From Candidatus Heritagella caecorum (GTDB lineage Bacteria > Bacillota > Clostridia > Oscillospirales > Acutalibacteraceae): a DNA stretch of 31,434 nucleotides. The notes beneath the pieces are model-generated. The model did not search any database and was not told the origin of the DNA. It saw only the letters and a list, made by a program, of their open reading frames with translations. Within the stretch, counting starts at the first letter, position 1. Each line of letters begins with the position of its first letter. The DNA is taken from assembly GCA_904419035.1 (NCBI GenBank), contig CAJFQL010000026.1, positions 1 to 31,434 on the forward strand, read 5' to 3'. Position numbers and translations under genes: made by a program. Shown here in pieces: positions 21,773-31,434 of this stretch.

Positions 21773-22723
21773 TTATATCTCGCCGGCTTTTTGCAAATAG
21801 GAACGAAGCACATCGCACGACGCGTGGAAGGCCTCTTTTTCGTCCGGCGTCAGGGATAACGTGACAATGCCTTCCATCCCACCGGCGCCAATCACCGCCG
21901 GTACCCCGGCCGCCACATTTTCTTCGCCGTATTCGCCCTGCAAGGCGGTGGAAACCGGCAGCACCACTTTTTCATCATGGAAAATCGCCGTTATGAGCCG
22001 CGCCGCCACGGTGCCAATACCAAATTCCGTGCAGGATTTGTGGGTGACTTCGAACATACCGGCGTCTTTCCCCCGGCGGGTCAGCTCATCAAGCGGCGTT
22101 TTCCCCCATCGCTCCGGTTCCTGCTGCCGCAGGGTCAAAAAAGGCTGTCCACCTATGCACACTCTTGACCAGGGCACCATGTGGGAATCCCCGTGTTCGC
22201 CCATGCACAGCGCGCTGACACTGTGGGTGCTCACGCCGCCATCCTGGGCGATCACCCGCCGCAGACGCAGACTGTCAAGCCCCGTACCGGTGGAAAACGC
22301 CTTCTCCCGGGGAAACCCAATCCCCCGCCGCAGCAGTTCGCCCACTACGTCGGCCGGGTTGGAAATGCTGATCAATATCCCGGAAAAGCCGCTTTGCTTT
22401 ATACGGGGGATGATGTCGTTTTTCAGCATGCGCACCGAATCATAAAATAGGTCGAGCCTGGTTTCGCCTTCTTTGCGGCCCCGGCCCGCCGCCATAATCA
22501 GGATGCTGGCGTCTTTCATATCGTCATCCGTGCCCGCCCGGATCACCGGGGCAAACCCCATGGAAACCGCCGCGTCGCTTAGATCCATCGCCTGGCCCGC
22601 CGCTTTCTTTTCCAGGATATCCAATAGTACAATTTCTTCGCACAATCCGCCGAACAGCAGACTCAGCGCACAGTGGGACCCCACGTGACCGGCGCCCAAA
22701 ATCACAACTTTTCTTTTTTGCAT
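21773..22723 (-). CDS. ldh: L-lactate dehydrogenase
   Basis: The ATG at 22723 (MQKRKVVILGAGHVGS...) is followed by a Rossmann GxGxxG, and the L-LDH catalytic-His signature GEHGDS is present. The track's 37-aa 5' extension is unlikely. Confidence 0.8.
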   Translation of the reverse strand: MQKRKVVILGAGHVGSHCALSLLFGGLCEEIVLLDILEKKAAGQAMDLSDAAVSMGFAPVIRAGTDDDMKDASILIMAAGRGRKEGETRLDLFYDSVRMLKNDIIPRIKQSGFSGILISISNPADVVGELLRRGIGFPREKAFSTGTGLDSLRLRRVIAQDGGVSTHSVSALCMGEHGDSHMVPWSRVCIGGQPFLTLRQQEPERWGKTPLDELTRRGKDAGMFEVTHKSCTEFGIGTVAARLITAIFHDEKVVLPVSTALQGEYGEENVAAGVPAVIGAGGMEGIVTLSLTPDEKEAFHASCDVLRSYLQKAGEI

Positions 22724-22856
22724 GGCAAGTGCCCCCTTTTTGACGACCTTTCTTTCCAGTATAGCACGTCTGTTTTCGCCGTCAAGAGCCAGCAAAAGGC
22801 CCGGCGGTTGTTTCCACAAATAGTACCCCCCCACCGGGCCCTTTTTCCCCCAAGTA

Positions 22857-24471: not shown

Positions 24472-24512
24472 ATAAAAAACAGGAGGTCCAAAAAAGACCT
24501 CCTGTTTTTTTA
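24472..24512. terminator. bidirectional rho-independent terminator ending the TIR/SPFH operon
   Basis: AGGAGGTC-CAAAAAA-GACCTCCT forms a perfect 8-bp stem. It is flanked by AAAAAAC on one side and GTTTTTTTA on the other. Confidence 0.65.
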
Positions 24513-24617
24513 TTCCGGCTGTACCGCTTCGCGCCGGATGCCAAAAACACGGCGCAGCAAAAAGCCCACAAGACCTTTCCCCCGAACCACGACCACTTTC
24601 ATGCCGAAGCACTCCTT

Positions 24618-24782
24618 TCAGCGGTGGGCCAATGTAAAGCCCATGGCTACAATGATGACCGCTGCCAAAAACAGCGTGAGCCCATACGGACAAAAACAGG
24701 AAAGGGTCAGCCCCAAACCAAACGCCGTGGCCCAACGGCCGCACCGGCGGCACACCGGGCGGGGCACACAGTGTTGTTTCAT
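24618..24782 (-). CDS. small Cys-rich membrane peptide (54 aa; below the ORF-track cutoff)
   Basis: Translation by eye gives MKQHCVPRPVCRRCGRWATAFGLGLTLSCFCPYGLTLFLAAVIIVAMGFTLAHR. The ATG is preceded by AAAGGGGG 7 nt upstream. The peptide has an N-terminal CxxxxxCxxC and a C-terminal TM helix, and it is the last gene before the terminator. Coordinates are +/-1 nt. Confidence 0.35.
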   Translation of the reverse strand: MKQHCVPRPVCRRCGRWATAFGLGLTLSCFCPYGLTLFLAAVIIVAMGFTLAHR

Positions 24783-24845
24783 GGTTTTCGCCCCCTTTCC
24801 TTCCCATTGTATACGAAAAGGGGCAAAAAGGTTCCGCCGGGTTTT

Positions 24846-26687
24846 TTATACCCGTACGGTCACGGGATTTTGCACTTCATGGCCAATAAACGCCCAGGCG
24901 TTGCTATACTGGCCGCTACGCACTTCATTTTTCAAATTTGCGCACTGCTTTTTCAGATTCACTACCTGCTGCGCCAACTCTGTCAGCTTCCTGTCCTGTT
25001 GCTCATAAAACTGGATCATTTGATCCATTTCACCCTGTACAGACCGGCACTGAGAAAAAATCGTGCGCAGGGTGGAAGCGTCCTGGCTGTTCTGGCAGTA
25101 ATTTAAGTATGCATTGAGCGCATCGTCCAACGCTTTGCGCTGCTGCTGCAAAGTGCCCAGCATGTTGTAAGCCACGGGAATTTCCTTTTGCTGGTTAAAC
25201 TGATTCACCGACAGGTTGTACTGGTTCTGCAAATTGTTCATCTGGGTGCGCAAAGTCTGGGACTGGGCTGTCACTTTCTGCATCTGCTGCTGCATGGCAG
25301 TTAACTTCTGCTGCATGCTCTGCCCGATGTTTTGAACCTCCGGCGCCCGCTTTTTCATGTTTTCTTCGATGGCCCCGGCTTTTTGCAGGAAATTTTCGTC
25401 ACGGAGCTGACGGCTCAATGCCTGGTCCAGCATACGGCACACCGACTGGATCCATTCGTCAATGGCCGTATTCACAGCCTGGTACGCCTTTTTCAGATCC
25501 GGTGACGCAAACCGGATGGCGTTTTTATAGGCGATTTCGCCGCTGATTTGTTGGCCCTTGCGGATCATTTCATCGGCTGTGCGGCACTTCAGCTTGCACA
25601 GTAGCTGGCCCCAATAGGCCTGTGCATTTTCGGGGTCTTTATCCAGCACGCGGTTATAATAAGTGGCGGCGTCGGAAAGCTGGCCGTTATCCAGGAAAAT
25701 GTCGGCCCGTTTGAGCAAACTGCGGGCTTCCTGCTGCATCACACTGCCCGCTGAAACGGCAGCAGCCGCGGCGGCCGGTTGGGTGGTTTTCCCGTTTTTC
25801 GCATTGACCAATTTTTGGACATATTCAATCAGCTGCAGTTCGCCGACAGGCGTACCCATATTGACAGCCTGCAACGACGACAGTTCCCGGGGCAAATCCA
25901 TATCAGGCAACAAATCCCAGTACGCCGGGATCAGTGTTTTTTCTTCGCCGTTATTGATCAGTTCCAAATACCGCGCCCATTCGTTCTTCACCCAGGGCGC
26001 CGTAAAGTATTCCGGTTTGGAGCCCATCAGCACCATCACCCGGGACGTGTGCAGCGCCGAAAAGATGATGGGTTCGTAATTTTTCCCCAGGGGCAGGGAT
26101 TCCGGGGCATAGAAGGTGCGAATCCCCTTGGCCGTCAATTTTTCATACAGCGAGCGGGCCCGGAAGCTATCCAGGGTACGTTCGCCGTTATCCTGCTCCT
26201 TATAGCTGATAAACACATCATATTTTTCCTGCTTGGCCGCAATGGAGAGAATCTCCTGCATAATGGTGTTGATCTCCTGGGCCTGGGCTTCGTAACGGCC
26301 CTTAGCGCCGGGTTCGGCCCGGCGGATGACCTCCTGAAAATCGGGGTCATTTAAAATGGAACCATATTTGGCCCGGTGACAGGTGGGCACATACCGTCCG
26401 GTGGCCGGGTCTTTTACGTATTCAATACCGTATTTGCAAAGGAGCAGGCCCCAATATGCTTCGGCGTCGCCGCTGTCTTCCGCAATCACTTTTTCGTAAA
26501 CCGAAATGGCCCGGTCAAATTCGCTGTGCATACGCAGATCGTTGGCGCGGTTGTGCATGCTGATAAGCCGTTCGTCATGATCGTTTGGTAAATCCGAAAT
26601 CGAATCGCACGAATCGCACACCGCTGTCTTCCCGTCCGGGTTGGGGATCAAATTGCCGCCGCACATTTTGCATTTAAAAACTGCCAT
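24846..26687 (-). CDS. TIR-domain protein with N-terminal zinc ribbon, two TPR-like modules flanking the TIR, and a Q/N-rich C-terminal coiled coil
   Basis: The N-terminus has CKMCGG...CDSCDS. The TIR core motifs are YDVFISYKEQD ... SRVMVLMGS ... PWVKNEWARYLEL. Two repeated TPR-like units, AEAYWGLLLCKYG and AQAYWGQLLCKLKC, flank the TIR. The C-terminus is a QSMQQKLTAMQQQMQK...NNLQNQYN coiled coil. The ATG start has a GGAGGAAAGA RBS. Confidence 0.7.
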   Translation of the reverse strand: MAVFKCKMCGGNLIPNPDGKTAVCDSCDSISDLPNDHDERLISMHNRANDLRMHSEFDRAISVYEKVIAEDSGDAEAYWGLLLCKYGIEYVKDPATGRYVPTCHRAKYGSILNDPDFQEVIRRAEPGAKGRYEAQAQEINTIMQEILSIAAKQEKYDVFISYKEQDNGERTLDSFRARSLYEKLTAKGIRTFYAPESLPLGKNYEPIIFSALHTSRVMVLMGSKPEYFTAPWVKNEWARYLELINNGEEKTLIPAYWDLLPDMDLPRELSSLQAVNMGTPVGELQLIEYVQKLVNAKNGKTTQPAAAAAAVSAGSVMQQEARSLLKRADIFLDNGQLSDAATYYNRVLDKDPENAQAYWGQLLCKLKCRTADEMIRKGQQISGEIAYKNAIRFASPDLKKAYQAVNTAIDEWIQSVCRMLDQALSRQLRDENFLQKAGAIEENMKKRAPEVQNIGQSMQQKLTAMQQQMQKVTAQSQTLRTQMNNLQNQYNLSVNQFNQQKEIPVAYNMLGTLQQQRKALDDALNAYLNYCQNSQDASTLRTIFSQCRSVQGEMDQMIQFYEQQDRKLTELAQQVVNLKKQCANLKNEVRSGQYSNAWAFIGHEVQNPVTVRV

Positions 26688-26702
26688 GGTTCTTTCCTCC
26701 GT

Positions 26703-27404
26703 TTATTTCAGGATCTTGCACTTCATGTTGCGCTCTTTGAGCTGGTTGCGCACCAGTACACAGGCCTGCCAGGCTTCGGTCTCCCGTCCGGCCCGCACAC
26801 AGGAGCCGATATAGGCAATCCGCTCCGCAATAAACTGTTCCAGCGACGAAAGCGCTTCGTGGCTCATGGGGTCGCTATAGCGCAAATCTTCCGCCAGCGA
26901 CAGCATTTCCTTTTTGACCGTCTCATCTTTCACGCTCAGGGCATACCCCTGCACATCGGTCATCAAATTGCGCACAAAAAAGACCTTTTGGTTTTCGGTC
27001 TCTTCCATTTTTTCGGCGTGATCTTTGGCGATCAGCCCCGAAATCAGGAAGATCACTTCCACCGCCAAAATCAGGATTTGAATAATAAACGCCAGTTTTA
27101 CATCGCAAGCGGGAATCAACATGATCACCGTACCAGCAATCAGTTCCACCACCAGGTACACTGCGGCGCTGCGGCTGATGGGATACCCCAAAAAGAGATC
27201 CCGGGGCCGGATCCCCTCACGGCCATAGGTCAGGCAGGTGACCAGAATCTGCATCAAAAACGCCACCAGCACAAAAATGTACGAACACCAGAACGACGGC
27301 GTCATCTGCCAGTTCCCGATGAGGACAAACAGAATCAGGTTGTAAACCAGAAAGCCGGTCAGCCATCCGACCGCCCCCAAGATATATTTCTTATCCACTT
27401 TCAT
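26703..27404 (-). CDS. 4-TM integral membrane protein with C-terminal cytoplasmic helical domain, function unknown
   Basis: 233-aa ORF with four hydrophobic helices in the first ~130 aa, followed by a charged helical C-terminal domain. The ATG start is preceded by GGAGGA and lies 15 nt upstream of the TIR gene. Confidence 0.5.
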   Translation of the reverse strand: MKVDKKYILGAVGWLTGFLVYNLILFVLIGNWQMTPSFWCSYIFVLVAFLMQILVTCLTYGREGIRPRDLFLGYPISRSAAVYLVVELIAGTVIMLIPACDVKLAFIIQILILAVEVIFLISGLIAKDHAEKMEETENQKVFFVRNLMTDVQGYALSVKDETVKKEMLSLAEDLRYSDPMSHEALSSLEQFIAERIAYIGSCVRAGRETEAWQACVLVRNQLKERNMKCKILK

Positions 27405-27456
27405 TGTGCCATTCCTCCCAGAATGGGGCTGTGCCCTTTTATGTTCTCAACCGTCT

Positions 27457-27987
27457 TTACGGTTCCGCTTTGTTTTGCAGCGCCGTTACCTCGCGCCGGA
27501 AGGCGTCCAGCCGCTGCTGTAAAGCGCCCTCGTAGTGATTTATTTGCTCCCAGCTTTTTTGCATGGAAGGGAGATACCCTTCAAACCGGTTCAGCGCATC
27601 GGCTTTTTGCAGCTTTTCGGTCATCTCAGCTTGGAACTGGAGTTCCTGTTCCCGCTCCGCTTCGTTTTTGGCCTGCTGACTAGCGAGACGCGCCGCCTTT
27701 TCGGCCGACGAGCCTTGCGCGATCCCCACGCACAAACCGATCACCGAACCGATCACCAATAAATAGAGGCCCGCCTGCATCAGCGCTTCATCACTGGGGA
27801 AGTACGTATCCAACGCATTCACCGCCATATCGCACACGCCAAATACGCAGCGTGTCCCGATGATGCCATCACAAGCATCGCCAAAACACTGGCCCAGCCC
27901 CAAGGCAAGCAAAATCACCAGCGTCCATACAACGGTATAGATGCACCCTTTTATCAGCCCTTTTATGGCGCCCGAAACCATTCTCAT
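27457..27987 (-). CDS. Cys-rich two-TM protein with cytoplasmic coiled coil (paralog A), function unknown
   Basis: 176-aa ORF organised as TM1, then a Cys-rich loop (GQCFGDACDG...RCVFGVCD), then TM2, then a coiled coil. Its ATG overlaps the stop of paralog B (ATGA). Confidence 0.5.
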   Translation of the reverse strand: MRMVSGAIKGLIKGCIYTVVWTLVILLALGLGQCFGDACDGIIGTRCVFGVCDMAVNALDTYFPSDEALMQAGLYLLVIGSVIGLCVGIAQGSSAEKAARLASQQAKNEAEREQELQFQAEMTEKLQKADALNRFEGYLPSMQKSWEQINHYEGALQQRLDAFRREVTALQNKAEP

Positions 27988-28505
27988 TGTGCGCTCCCGC
28001 CTTTCGGTGTGCCGCCTTGGCCTTTTTCGATCAGCTGCCGGATCTCACTCTGCAACACATGCAGGTGCTTGTCCGTTTCCCTCTGGTGGGCCATCATCGT
28101 CTCGTGGGTTTTGGAAAGCCCCGTACGGATTTTTACACTCTCATTAGGCATTTCACTACACTTTAATAGCGTTTCACGAATCGTACCTGCAAAATTTTCC
28201 TGGTTTCGGTGCTCGTCCTCCACCTGGTTCGACTGGATGTGCAAAATTTGCGCCTTTTGCTTGGAAACACCTGTCGCCATACCGATTAAGAACCCAAGCA
28301 CGGCCCCAATAATCCCGCCGTAGATGAAGGTACTGGCTGGCAATTGGTCAATTCCCCGGGTACAATCTCCCACGCAGTTATTCTCACCAATAAAGCAGGT
28401 ACACAGTTCTCCCACGCACCCCAAAATTCCAATGGCCAGCACCACAGCCAGCCCGGCGAGTGCGCCGATGAATATCCCGGCGATTGAATATTTTACGACT
28501 TGCAA
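27984..28505 (-). CDS. Cys-rich two-TM protein with cytoplasmic coiled coil (paralog B), function unknown
   Basis: 173-aa ORF with the same architecture as paralog A; its Cys-rich loop is GCVGELCTCFIGENNCVGDC. A TTG start at 28505 has GGAGGA 6 nt upstream and overlaps the lgt 3' end by 13 nt. Confidence 0.5.
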   Translation of the reverse strand: MQVVKYSIAGIFIGALAGLAVVLAIGILGCVGELCTCFIGENNCVGDCTRGIDQLPASTFIYGGIIGAVLGFLIGMATGVSKQKAQILHIQSNQVEDEHRNQENFAGTIRETLLKCSEMPNESVKIRTGLSKTHETMMAHQRETDKHLHVLQSEIRQLIEKGQGGTPKGGSAQ

Positions 28506-29308
28506 AATGATTCCTCCTCAGGTTTGGGGGCATGCCGTCCCCGGTATCGATACCAGCCGCCCCACAGGGCCAAAGCCACAAGCAGCCCCATGCTGACAAG
28601 CTGGCTAAAAGAAAATACCCCATACACGCCCCGTACCGCGTCGCCCCGCAAAAATTCCAGGCAGAACCGGCACACGGCGTAACTGGCCATATAGATAAAG
28701 ACCAATTGCCCCGAAAACCGCTTTTTTCGGTACAAAAGCAGCATACAAAGGCACAGCAGAAAAAGGCACACAGCTTCCAGCAGCTGTACCGGAAAGCACC
28801 ACCGTTCGCTGCCGTCCGGAAGGATATAATGCACCGCCAAAAAGCCGTGCCATTCCTTCCCATAACAACACCCGGCAAACAGGCACCCAAACCGGGCGAT
28901 CCCGTGAAACAGCGGGATCACGATGGCCAAGGTATCCATCTGCACCGTCAGGTGGGCAAAGGTCTGCCGGTGTTTGATAATCCAGCCCGTCACCAGCCGG
29001 TACACGAGCACAAAACCGAGCAGCCCTCCATACGCCACAAACGCGCTGCGTCGCACATCGGTAAAGGTCAGCGCCCGGCCTTCCTGCAGGCAATTGGCCA
29101 CTTCAACCAAAAAGCCGAAAAAACGCCCGCCCAGTAGCAGACCCAACGCGGCCAGCCCGAACTGCCATCCGAACCAGCGCAGGTCTTCGCTTTTTTTCAG
29201 CAGGACCGCCACAAACGGGATTAAGGCCGCCACAGTAGCGATTCCCGCAAAAAACAGGTACGGAGTCACGCCCGCGATGCGGGTGGTTTCGGTATAAACG
29301 GTGATCAT
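28493..29308 (-). CDS. lgt: prolipoprotein diacylglyceryl transferase
   Basis: About 271 aa from the ATG at 29308 (MITVYTE...), in an ATGA overlap with the SPFH gene stop. The protein is polytopic, with Lgt-like motifs ...HGIARFGCLFAGCCYG... and ...CRFCLEFLRGD... (the Lgt RxxExxRxD signature). The track's 27-aa N-terminal extension is unlikely. Confidence 0.6.
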   Translation of the reverse strand: MITVYTETTRIAGVTPYLFFAGIATVAALIPFVAVLLKKSEDLRWFGWQFGLAALGLLLGGRFFGFLVEVANCLQEGRALTFTDVRRSAFVAYGGLLGFVLVYRLVTGWIIKHRQTFAHLTVQMDTLAIVIPLFHGIARFGCLFAGCCYGKEWHGFLAVHYILPDGSERWCFPVQLLEAVCLFLLCLCMLLLYRKKRFSGQLVFIYMASYAVCRFCLEFLRGDAVRGVYGVFSFSQLVSMGLLVALALWGGWYRYRGRHAPKPEEESFCKS

Positions 29309-31179
29309 ACGCTCGGTTCCTGGCCATTCCCGGCATCCGGCGCCGCGGTGTCCACCGCTTGGGTCACAGCCGGGCGGGGGTTGCCGCATTCGTCACAGAA
29401 TTTGCCCCGGTTGCCGGTTTTGCCGCATACACAGTTCCAGGTGTCGTCCTTTTGCGGGCGGGGCTTACCGCAATTCTGGCAGAATTTGCCCCGGTTGCCT
29501 TTTTGCCCGCATTCACAGTCCCAGGTATCCTCTTTTTGTGGACGGGGCTTGCCGCAATTCTGGCAGAACTTGCCCCGGTTCCCCTTTTGGCCGCATTCAC
29601 AGTCCCAAGTATCCTCGGGCTGAGGCTGAGGCTTGCCGCAATTCTGACAGAATTTGCCCTGGTTCCCCTTTTGGCCGCATGCGCAATCCCATCCGGTTGT
29701 CAAAACCGGCGGCGTTTCGGTGAAGGTTTCCATCATGGGATTGAGCGCATCTTTTGTCATGTGGATCACACCGCCCATCATGCCAAGGCCCATGCCCAAA
29801 TTGGCAATATCGGCCATACCGCCGGCGCCGCCCGCCGATGAGTTGGTAGCGATACCCACGCCCACCTGCCGGGCCGTTTCCTGCTGGTAGGTATACCCTT
29901 TCATGCGCATCTCTTCCGCTTCGGCCTGGGCCTGCATGCGGTAGCTTTCCGCTTCGCCCTGGGCCCGCGCCACTTTCATGCGGGCTTCCGTTTCGGCGCG
30001 CAGCACCTGGCGTTCCATATCCACCTTTTCCCGTTCCAGCGCCGCCGTGCTGGTTTCTTTTTTGATCTGTTCTTCCCGCACATTCAGGAAGCGGTCGGCG
30101 TACTGCTGGCGCAGGCGGTTGAAGTTTTCGTCATCCGGCAGCACCACCGTGGTGACGAAAAATTCCGGCATTTCCAGGCCGTAATCGGCTAAGTATTCGT
30201 TCAGGCTCTTGCGCAGGCCTTCGGAAAGCAGCGCAAGCTGCTCGTCGATTTCCAGAATATTGATCTGGTTCTGCTTGATAATCTGGGGCAGGCGGCTTTT
30301 CACCTGGGTCAGGATCAGCGGCTTAAACGAAGCCTGGAACGACATCACGCCGCTGTCCTGGCTTTCCTGGCGCAGCCCCATGCTGGTGCCCACCATTTTC
30401 AGCACCAGTTTGCGGGAATCGATGACCCGCACATTGTATTGGCCGCTGGCCCCGATTTCAATATGCATCCCGGTGGCCGGGTCGAACAGCCGTACTTTGC
30501 TGTCGGTCCCCCAGCGCAAGCCCATTTGCACGGCCATATTGATAAAGTAGACTTCCGAATGGAAGGCGCCTTCGGTACCGGCCGGCAGCTTATAGAATTC
30601 ATTTAATATGGGCAGTTTTTCGGTTTCCAGCGTATACCGGCCCGCCGGGAACAGATCCAGCGCCCGCCCGTTGCGGAAGAGCAAAGCTTCCTGGGATTCA
30701 TGGACAATCAGCTGCGAACCCAAATTAAAATCTTCCAGCGGGTGTTTCCACACAAAAACCGTGTTGTCGCCTTCGTATTTGATCAAGCTGGCTACGCCCG
30801 CTTTGGCTACTTTGGCTTTTCCCAACTGCTGCTGTACATCCACCACCGTGTCGCACAGCGGACAGGTATACGTCGATGTACTGCGGTCTGCCGTCAGCGT
30901 ACAGGCGCAAGTCGGGCATGTGAACGAAACCACCGTTTTTCCGTCGCCCACGCTGAGCTTTTGTTTACATACCGGGCATACGGCGTTTTTCGCCTTCGAC
31001 TGGTCATACACAATGGTATTGCCGCAATGGGGGCACACCTTCGTCGTAACTTTATCCGTTTTTACATGGATGGTATACCCGCAGTCGCAGTCGATGGTCC
31101 TTTTTGTAAAGAAGAAAAACCTTTTTTGTGTCATATGATATTTGCCGCAGTTGGGGCACTCAATGACAAATCCCGCCAT
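29305..31179 (-). CDS. SPFH/band-7 (flotillin-/YdjI-like) domain protein with three N-terminal and four C-terminal zinc-ribbon modules
   Basis: The ATG at 31179 (MAGFVIECPNCGK...) has a GGAGAGGAG RBS. The N-terminus has three CxxC...CxC ribbons. The central SPFH domain reads GDNTVFVWKHP...LFRNGRALDLF...NVRVIDSRKLV. It is followed by an EA-rich coiled coil and a Gly/Met-rich linker, then four 28-aa repeats DCxCGQKGNxGKFCQNCGKPxPQ. The track's 41-aa 5' extension is unlikely. Confidence 0.7.
   Translation of the reverse strand: MAGFVIECPNCGKYHMTQKRFFFFTKRTIDCDCGYTIHVKTDKVTTKVCPHCGNTIVYDQSKAKNAVCPVCKQKLSVGDGKTVVSFTCPTCACTLTADRSTSTYTCPLCDTVVDVQQQLGKAKVAKAGVASLIKYEGDNTVFVWKHPLEDFNLGSQLIVHESQEALLFRNGRALDLFPAGRYTLETEKLPILNEFYKLPAGTEGAFHSEVYFINMAVQMGLRWGTDSKVRLFDPATGMHIEIGASGQYNVRVIDSRKLVLKMVGTSMGLRQESQDSGVMSFQASFKPLILTQVKSRLPQIIKQNQINILEIDEQLALLSEGLRKSLNEYLADYGLEMPEFFVTTVVLPDDENFNRLRQQYADRFLNVREEQIKKETSTAALEREKVDMERQVLRAETEARMKVARAQGEAESYRMQAQAEAEEMRMKGYTYQQETARQVGVGIATNSSAGGAGGMADIANLGMGLGMMGGVIHMTKDALNPMMETFTETPPVLTTGWDCACGQKGNQGKFCQNCGKPQPQPEDTWDCECGQKGNRGKFCQNCGKPRPQKEDTWDCECGQKGNRGKFCQNCGKPRPQKDDTWNCVCGKTGNRGKFCDECGNPRPAVTQAVDTAAPDAGNGQEPSV
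29360..29700 (-). repeat. four tandem ~84-bp direct repeats (coding; zinc-ribbon repeats of the SPFH protein C-terminus)
   Basis: The unit CTTGCCGCAATTCTGGCAGAATTTGCCCCGGTT... recurs four times with a period of ~84 nt and >85% identity. It encodes TWDCECGQKGNRGKFCQNCGKPRPQKED. Confidence 0.75.
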
Positions 31180-31372
31180 ATTCTTCTCCTCTCCCTTCTT
31201 TTCGATCCTGTTCTGCCCTTTTCCCGATTCTTTTCTATAGAAATTCGGATGGGAAGATTCCCGCTCTTTCATACAGGCTGCCGCTTTCATAAGGGCAGGC
31301 ATACTCTAATTATAATAGAAAAGGCTCCTGTATGACATGAACAGGTCCAGTAAAAACGGACAATAGACAAAG

Positions 31373-31415
31373 TACCCCCTGATGTAGGAAAATGGAAGTA
31401 CTACATCAGGGGGTA
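31373..31415. promoter_or_regulatory. perfect 13-bp inverted repeat (CCCCCTGATGTAG / CTACATCAGGGGG) whose 3' arm contains the Shine-Dalgarno of a plus-strand gene starting at 31421
   Basis: The sequence is TACCCCCTGATGTAG-gaaaatggaagta-CTACATCAGGGGGTA followed by ttact-ATG. AGGGGG is the only RBS-like element for the ATG at ~31421. Confidence 0.4.
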
Positions 31416-31420
31416 TTACT

Positions 31421-31434
31421 ATGGGAAAAAGGAA
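31421..31434 (+). CDS. 5' end of an unidentified plus-strand CDS (truncated by the window edge)
   Basis: ATGGGAAAAAGGAA... (M G K R ...) with AGGGGG 8 nt upstream. It is the only plausible plus-strand gene start in the window. Confidence 0.25.

Follow-up and report, generated by a model that had tools for sequence, protein, structure and literature searches.

The closest characterised relative of the SPFH protein described in this study is YdjI of Bacillus subtilis, which carries a Band_7_1 domain and a C-terminal zinc finger, depends on partner proteins and acts in envelope stress. YdjI reaches the membrane only together with YdjG and YdjH (PMC8581546); YdjG has N-terminal zinc ribbons, and YdjH is a TPM-domain protein (PMC11237479). 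Thoeris, AbTir, SPARTA TIR-APAZ and TIR-STING are known systems and proteins with NAD-cleaving TIR domains. To our knowledge, the bacterial TIR systems reported to date detect infection intracellularly. In animals, the signalling of Toll-like receptors depends on flotillin and raft microdomains. In this study, we analysed a stretch of 31,434 nucleotides from Candidatus Heritagella caecorum (contig CAJFQL010000026.1, hereafter the window), in which an operon on the minus strand (24618-31179) encodes an SPFH protein, a divergent Lgt-family protein, two Cys-rich membrane proteins, a membrane protein with four transmembrane (TM) helices, a TIR-domain protein and a 54-aa peptide. The operon is one version of a widespread, apparently undescribed module of gut Clostridia. 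From sequence comparison and structure models we believe, with a probability of about 55%, that it encodes a membrane-associated TIR signalling module with an immune or sensing role.

The alignment of the SPFH protein was scanned over one genome per species, which gave at least 570 positive stretches, that is, at least 570 species carrying the SPFH gene, and 80 of these stretches were kept as loci. The 80 loci came mostly from Oscillospirales and Lachnospirales, plus Flexilinea. The gene of the four-helix protein of 233 aa (TM233; 26703-27404, minus strand) was found in 76 of them and lay directly downstream of the SPFH gene in 72. A gene for a zinc ribbon-TPR-TIR protein was present within 4 kb on the same strand in 70 of the 80 loci, and the 10 loci lacking it all had a contig end under 2 kb away from the SPFH gene on one side. 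The number of TIR copies was one in 38 loci, two in 22, three in seven, four in two and five in one. TIR orthologues at 66%, 40%, 39% and 33% identity all adjoined SPFH, TM233 and/or Lgt-like genes, and SPFH homologues chosen independently also lay next to TM233 and TIR genes. The genes flanking the module varied from species to species. The orthologues were thus clustered rather than scattered in related genomes, as the original prediction had expected, and the conserved core is SPFH-zinc ribbon, TM233 and TIR, three genes rather than the seven proposed.

The same data bear on the view that the operon is a chance composite, in which a housekeeping lgt, unrelated membrane proteins and an orphan TIR gene happen to share one transcript. 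Some of the gene content fits this view: the 54-aa gene and a SpoVM-like open reading frame (ORF) next to it are probably unrelated passengers, and most versions of the module have neither Lgt nor Cys-rich genes. However, SPFH, TM233 and TIR genes were linked in 70 of 80 species, the Lgt and Cys-rich genes were adjacent in 10 of 10 contexts with unrelated flanks, and the Lgt-like protein scores far under the equivalog cut-offs and carries subfamily-specific substitutions. Because the linkage recurs in dozens of species and in unrelated genomic contexts, chance juxtaposition is already largely refuted, and we regard it as highly improbable.

A scan of viral contigs gave just seven distant SPFH proteins, all without N-terminal zinc ribbons. 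The module is therefore not phage-borne, which is neutral with regard to a role in host defence. It was also present in Flexilinea and uncultured Chloroflexi metagenome-assembled genomes (L037 and L069), with SPFH proteins about 55% identical to the clostridial ones, and this distribution suggests transfer between phyla in gut and rumen habitats.

The SPFH protein (29305-31179, minus strand; 624 aa) matched the Pfam family Band_7_1 (PF13421) at 125.9 bits against a cut-off of 24, over profile positions 9-198 of 211. Three N-terminal zinc ribbons (aa 8-109) are followed by the SPFH domain (aa 149-350), an EA-rich coiled coil, a Gly-rich hydrophobic stretch and four C-terminal WDCxCG...FCxxCG zinc-ribbon repeats. 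The seven fused zinc ribbons read from the sequence at the outset were thus borne out, three at the N-terminus and four at the C-terminus, with Cys pairs invariant in the alignment. No TM helix was predicted in the protein, and the NCBIfam search gave nothing specific for it; more than 6,900 homologues were found at 50-57% identity. TM233 is its near-universal partner. The four TM helices claimed for the 233-aa product were confirmed by topology prediction, and the model adds a probable cytoplasmic helical bundle; no family match was obtained in Pfam or NCBIfam. A word-indexed search with TM233 gave eight relatives, and the family was then recovered with phmmer and jackhmmer on the SPFH loci. 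An invariant YSDP motif, which reads RYSDPMS in the window, is common to its members, as is a basic C-terminal tail, ERNxKCKxLK, in which a Cys is conserved.

The comparison with PspA-YdjGHI holds for the SPFH protein alone. Like YdjI, it has a Band_7_1 domain, C-terminal zinc ribbons and no TM helix of its own, and its gene adjoins genes of membrane proteins that plausibly tether it. In contrast, none of the operon proteins matched PspA_IM30 in Pfam, and no such protein was listed in related clusters. Both PspA and a TPM-domain YdjH, which the analogy first drawn would call for, are missing. We considered TM233 as a counterpart of YdjH and rejected it: by description, YdjH is a TPM-domain protein, and TM233 is a four-helix protein without a Pfam match. 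Here, the SPFH protein itself carries the fused zinc ribbons (three N-terminal and three to seven C-terminal), and the TIR partner is obligate, whereas the Psp literature consulted reports none.

The likeness to YdjI raises the question of whether the operon is a Psp/YdjGHI-type system of envelope stress or membrane homeostasis rather than an anti-phage system. The SPFH protein and TM233 would then monitor or repair the membrane, and the TIR proteins would be NAD-linked regulators or oligomerising adaptors. The envelope-stress function of YdjI and its dependence on partners agree with this, as do the high conservation of the SPFH protein and TM233, the chromosomal and syntenic position of the window locus, and the lack of a match to known defence systems in PADLOC. 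However, neither PspA/IM30 nor a TPM-domain protein occurred in any inspected cluster. Multi-copy arrays, hypervariable C-termini and domains of the type targeted by diversity-generating retroelements (DGRs) are atypical of housekeeping stress systems, and a conserved catalytic-type Glu in the TIR protein favours an enzyme over a pure scaffold. On balance, we think an envelope-stress system unlikely, and a TIR signalling module remains our preferred reading.

The TIR protein (24846-26687, minus strand; 613 aa) was named as such in the original prediction, and the profile search upheld the assignment: TIR_2 matched at 48.3 bits against a cut-off of 28, together with TPR. A highly conserved module of about 400 aa, composed of a zinc ribbon (C6/C9/C24/C27), TPR, TIR and TPR, forms the N-terminus of the protein and is N-terminal in 217 of 236 relatives. 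The TIR domain itself covers approximately aa 155-298 (nt 25794-26225) and contains two conserved motifs, D157-x-F-I-x-Y-K-E and W232-V-x-N-E236-W. The putative catalytic Glu236 (nt 25980-25982; in W232-V-K-N-E-W in the window) was aligned with the Glu of WCLDEL/WCLEEL in AtTIR and Roq1, which we take to be the catalytic residue of plant TIRs, and it was kept in 97% of the 236 relatives. The AlphaFold2 model (pLDDT 88) has long antiparallel helices at residues 396-601. With Foldseek, the top matches were the NAD-cleaving TIRs of L7, AbTir (TM-score 0.76), BtTir, SARM1 and SPARTA, with a probability of 1.00 for L7, AbTir, SARM1 and SPARTA. Alignment and model both point to a TIR domain that is probably catalytic, and we infer immune or envelope signalling through NAD+ cleavage.

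With Thoeris, AbTir, SPARTA TIR-APAZ and TIR-STING, the TIR protein shares the conserved catalytic-type Glu and a fold closest to NAD-cleaving TIRs. Tandem TIR paralogues, and SIR2-like genes in a few related loci, are further points of likeness to Thoeris and other TIR systems. Unlike in Thoeris, no ThsA effector (SIR2/SLOG or TM/Macro) was found in the operon by PADLOC or Pfam. Because ThsA is missing and the ThsB model scored only 23 bits, the TIR protein is probably not a member of Thoeris. It also differs from the other TIR NADase systems in that its TIR domain, set within a fixed zinc ribbon-TPR-TIR-TPR module, is linked to an SPFH scaffold and to the membrane.

Beyond the conserved module, the TIR proteins of different species diverge. 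In a set of 240 relatives, 105 (about 44%) had one strong TM helix followed by at least 100 further residues, 31 were multi-pass, 17 were tail-anchored and 87 had no TM helix. In the single-TM relatives, the K+R counts ahead of and past the helix were 6.2 and 2.1, respectively, and 98% showed a positive-inside pattern; because of this bias, the TIR domain should lie inside and the C-terminus outside. The Pfam scan of the relatives was run on the C-termini alone. Among 100 C-termini of the species sample, 32 matched RCC1, 15 DUF6273, three LRR, one Flg_new and one ankyrin. DUF6273 has been described in the literature as a target domain of DGRs. Many relatives thus have the predicted topology of a receptor, with the TIR domain in the cytoplasm and a variable binding domain (RCC1, DUF6273 or LRR) outside. 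Weak matches to CIDE-N were also seen in five C-termini (L012-L091 set; best E = 2e-5). In the window's own TIR protein, no TM helix was predicted and a coiled coil closes the sequence; it thus lacks the single helix between TIR domain and ectodomain that marks a topology of the Toll-like-receptor type.

Many members of the TIR family described here follow the logic of animal Toll-like and interleukin-1 receptors: they pair a variable ectodomain, in some cases LRR, with a single TM helix and a TIR domain in the cytoplasm. The orientation is reversed here, however: the TIR domain is N-terminal (type II), and the ectodomains are mostly RCC1 or DUF6273. Moreover, the TIR domain looks catalytic here instead of acting as a pure adaptor, and the window protein lacks the TM helix. 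Shared ancestry of the whole architecture with the animal receptors is not implied. We tentatively propose, as a possibility that we would not put beyond about one chance in three, a bacterial counterpart of Toll-like receptor signalling, with RCC1, LRR or DGR-diversifiable DUF6273 domains outside (Cys-rich sensors in the window), a catalytic TIR domain inside and a microdomain of SPFH protein and TM233. If this were true, the cell could detect phages or other threats at its surface, before or during entry.

The outward-facing domains could also serve no immune purpose. In such a case, the operon would organise surface receptors or adhesins that sense the environment, the host or neighbouring cells; RCC1, LRR and DUF6273 would bind glycans or cells, the SPFH lattice would cluster them, and a non-immune TIR signal would control, for example, sporulation, dormancy or kin recognition. 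RCC1, LRR and DUF6273 are domain types of Firmicutes surface proteins, the topology is strongly N-in and C-out, the module occurs mostly in gut and rumen Clostridia, and the window copy adjoins spoVM-like, sipL and spoIVA genes. However, these sporulation neighbours are confined to the close relatives of the window, and defence-type genes are embedded in several arrays. We also know of no bacterial TIR enzyme studied so far that is not involved in conflict with phages or hosts. We consider such an organiser quite unlikely compared with an immune or sensing TIR module.

Two further parts of the operon, the Lgt-like enzyme and the Cys-rich proteins, form a rare cassette separate from the three-gene core. 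The Lgt-like protein (28493-29308, minus strand; 271 aa, seven TM helices) starts in an ATGA overlap with the SPFH stop codon. It matched PF01790 at 84.8 bits against a cut-off of 24.9, in line with its first assignment as Lgt, and fell below the equivalog cut-offs (NF000778, 99 vs 334 bits; TIGR00544, 55 vs 119 bits). The search with phmmer against PDB sequences had missed E. coli Lgt, and the protein was aligned straight to MG1655 lgt. It retains Y26, R143, G154, Y235, R239, E243 and R246 of E. coli Lgt, and H103, N146 and E151 are replaced by Y, C and C, respectively, in eight of eight members of the subfamily. Y26, H103, R143, N146, E151, G154, Y235, R239 and E243 are, we assume, the essential or important residues of E. 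coli Lgt. Compared with canonical Lgt, the protein shares the LGT family, the seven TM helices, conserved residues and adjacent small proteins with a basic N-terminus, a hydrophobic stretch and an early Cys, and differs in the missing head domain and the three substitutions. It is also one half of a dedicated pair with one substrate-like gene instead of a housekeeping enzyme, and a canonical lipobox is present in only about half of its partners.

The Cys-rich membrane/coiled-coil proteins A (27984-28505, minus strand; 173 aa, TTG start) and B (27457-27987, minus strand; 176 aa) were claimed to be paralogues, which BLASTP supports (25% identity, E = 4e-13). Topology and motifs give them a common layout: the N-terminus is basic and leads into a hydrophobic stretch, the first Cys is residue 30 or 34, and a Cys-rich loop then precedes a TM helix and a coiled coil. 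In protein A, a signal-peptide-like N-terminal helix with a lipobox-like AIGILG|C30 leads to a Cys-rich outer loop, the TM helix and a cytoplasmic coiled coil; in protein B, the first loop Cys is C34, preceded by a non-canonical GLGQ. The TM/Cys-loop/TM/coiled-coil layout of the original prediction therefore stands for the loop, the second TM helix and the coiled coil, and its first TM helix resembles a lipoprotein-type signal peptide. Nothing specific for these proteins was found in NCBIfam.

We applied a PROSITE-like lipobox rule, which asks for a basic N-terminus, a hydrophobic stretch and [LVI..][..][AGS]-C at positions 15-35, and which 26 of 1,864 ORFs satisfied as background. The 173-aa protein (C30), the related proteins of L001, L013 and L006 and the 54-aa peptide (C29) all conform to the rule; the relative in L100 (P0252) conforms to a slightly relaxed rule at C34, and paralogue B does not conform. 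The first Cys of the small proteins next to Lgt genes lay at positions 27-35. The wider family makes it less likely that all Cys-rich proteins are canonical lipoproteins: G, A or S precedes the first Cys in only six of 11 members.

The Cys-rich family is rare, with 13 representatives among 1.84 billion proteins. In 10 of 10 distinct readable contexts (among them the window, the L001/L013 clade, L006, L100, L102, L103, L105, L107 and L108), an Lgt-family gene lay directly upstream of the Cys-rich gene, often overlapping it. The contexts of L100, L102, L103 and L105 also held SPFH, TM233 and/or TIR genes. In L003, which lacks an Lgt gene, the loop of the analogous TM-loop-TM-coiled-coil protein is free of Cys. 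In L107 and L108, the Lgt-like/Cys-rich pair is followed by a zinc ribbon-TPR-coiled-coil protein and then by an FtsK/nSTAND-type NTPase; the former aligns with residues 328-489 of the window's TIR protein and has no TIR domain. These two loci (L107:1395-7153 and L108:554-6444) follow a helix-turn-helix gene and hold neither SPFH nor TIR genes, and the NTPase, of the FtsK/nSTAND1 type, is large. This arrangement suggests that the membrane cassette also serves a second system, distinct from the first. From L107, L108 and the adjacency contexts, we concluded that the Lgt-like, Cys-rich and zinc ribbon-TPR-coiled-coil proteins behave as a single unit that can be coupled to different effectors.

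Lipid modification of the Cys-rich proteins by a dedicated Lgt-like enzyme is a plausible, if tentative, reading. The position of a TIR protein without a TM helix beside the cassette suggests a split receptor, composed of a soluble TIR subunit and Cys-rich membrane subunits.

Taken together, these findings lead us to favour the following mechanism. TM233 would tether the lattice of SPFH domains and zinc ribbons to the membrane, as YdjG and YdjH do for YdjI, and the lattice would concentrate the TIR receptors. In the window, the Cys-rich proteins would be the outward-facing sensor and anchor subunits of the split receptor, might be lipid-modified on the first Cys by the dedicated Lgt-like enzyme, and would bind the TIR protein through their coiled coils. 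A trigger at the cell envelope (for example, a phage that attaches or injects its DNA, damage to the membrane, or a ligand from outside) could then make the TIR domains cluster, and these would cleave NAD+ or make an NAD-derived signal and lead to growth arrest or abortive infection. We hypothesise that the module senses phages or membrane damage.

One to five TIR paralogues per locus with hypervariable C-termini were counted as a flavour of conflict systems, as was the DGR target domain DUF6273, and the genes embedded in some loci add to it. A full-length DRT UG26 reverse transcriptase (545 bits) lies inside one SPFH/TM233/TIR array, and other arrays hold SIR2-like proteins (weak matches), small RX4H proteins that match HEPN models weakly, a Schlafen/AlbA_2 protein and DUF559 nucleases. 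The DRT UG26, SIR2-like and Schlafen/AlbA_2 genes were located at L070:8350-9591, L031:11634-12557, L085:8397-9719 and L037:5378-6706.

Several results weigh against an immune or sensing TIR module. PADLOC on the seven products gave weak TIR matches (33.4 bits to PDC-S66; 23.3 bits to ThsB1, E = 7e-6) and no system. The window locus lies among housekeeping and sporulation genes and is syntenic where the TIR proteins are 66% identical, and because of this setting and synteny, the locus is no obvious defence island. Few immune genes would be expected to be as conserved as that of the SPFH protein, with its 50-57% identity between orders. Insertion into hotspots, with no relation to the module, could account for the embedded defence genes, and most of the matches are weak. 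Lipid transfer is also uncertain, since the Lgt-like enzyme has Cys at the positions of N146 and E151. Among the 11 Cys-rich proteins, the canonical G, A or S is found ahead of the first Cys in just six.

The architecture was regarded as undescribed from the start, and this agrees with our searches: there is no PADLOC model for it, and full-text searches of mostly non-subscription literature found no paper on SPFH and TIR, Band_7_1 and TIR, TIR and RCC1, or bacterial TIR and flotillin. Two conflict-system papers of the Aravind laboratory did not cover the SPFH-TM233-TIR module. We rate the module as TIR-based signalling or defence with a new membrane architecture. A TIR domain wired to an SPFH scaffold in the membrane would suggest that the cell surface is where immune or stress signals are sensed, and outward-facing hypervariable binding domains fused to TIR would represent a sensing mode linked with animal Toll-like receptors. 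Abundant Clostridia of gut and rumen commonly carry the module, which would add a large, testable family to bacterial immunity and give SPFH/flotillin proteins a concrete client. Such a dedicated pair of Lgt-like and Cys-rich genes would also offer one of the few instances of a private lipoprotein-modifying enzyme.

Some loci carry variants of the module. In L103 (4621-9974), the SPFH protein (483 aa) ends in a SHOCT domain instead of zinc ribbons and is followed by TM233, Lgt-like, Cys-rich and TIR genes; this module adjoins a gene for a cNMP-binding protein. In L006 (93-8078), a truncated upstream gene has a SHOCT-like end, and the genes that come after TM233 encode a HerA-like DUF87 ATPase (810 aa), an acidic protein of 383 aa with an HExxH motif and a 98-aa protein, with the Lgt-like, Cys-rich and TIR genes next in line. 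Two families of small soluble RX4H proteins (RNKIIH and RNSFAH) recur between the TIR genes and the SPFH and TM233 genes, and members at L004:12056-12520 and L011:10595-11179, with their relatives, gave weak HEPN matches.

With regard to the layout of the operon in the window, all seven predicted ORFs were present on the minus strand in 24618-31179, and an eighth of 30 aa (24510-24602) had been missed. The ATGA stop/start overlaps at 29308-29305 and 27987-27984, the 13-nt overlap between the Lgt gene and the 173-aa gene (28493-28505) and the 15-nt gap ahead of the TIR gene were all seen. The genes do not run without gaps, as had been stated: 52 nt lie ahead of the four-TM gene and 63 nt ahead of the 54-aa gene. 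The start of the SPFH gene at 31179 (not 31302) and that of the Lgt gene at 29308 fit the lengths and N-termini of the orthologues, and the 173-aa gene has a TTG start at 28505 with a GAGGAGG ribosome-binding site.

Upstream of the operon, a hairpin at 31365-31434 (minus strand; free energy -26.7 kcal/mol, z = -7.0, 0 of 200 shuffles as stable) probably ends transcription of the gene before it. A sigma-70-like promoter candidate follows at 31338-31309 on the minus strand (ATGTCA, 18 nt, TATAAT; 10 of 12 matches in a consensus scan only), and then a leader of approximately 125 nt and the ribosome-binding site GGAGAGGAG. The bidirectional terminator placed near 24490 corresponds to a hairpin at 24474-24510, an intrinsic terminator for both strands with a 16-bp stem between an A-run and a U-run (free energy -25.7 kcal/mol, z = -5.6, 0 of 200 shuffles as stable), which closes the transcription unit. 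No convincing internal terminator was found within the operon, and the hairpin in the gap between the TIR and 54-aa genes was not significant in fold energy against shuffles (z = -1.9).

The 54-aa Cys-rich membrane peptide (24618-24782, minus strand) has a CxxC-like N-terminus and a lipobox-like GLTLS|C29, and nothing specific for it was found in NCBIfam. It is conserved in L001, L002 and L013, more strongly than its neighbours: its last 36 aa are near-identical where the TIR proteins are 66% identical. The peptide is confined to the syntenic clade and missing from non-syntenic versions of the module, in which its membership is doubtful. The 30-aa ORF (24510-24602, minus strand; MKVVVVRGKGLVGFLLRRVFGIRREAVQPE, starting MKVVVVRGKGLVGFLLRRVFG) begins 15 nt past the 54-aa gene, precedes the bidirectional terminator, has an AAAGGAG ribosome-binding site and is conserved in L001, L002 and L013 (E = 7e-12). 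Pfam and NCBIfam searches gave no match for it; we take it to be similar to SpoVM, a peptide of spore morphogenesis. As a passenger or a sporulation gene, the 54-aa gene probably goes together with this SpoVM-like ORF. Downstream of the 30-aa ORF are genes for SipL, lactate dehydrogenase and SpoIVA. In L001, spoIVA comes directly after sipL, with no dehydrogenase gene between them; in the window, the lactate/malate dehydrogenase gene (21773-22834, minus strand) sits between sipL and spoIVA.

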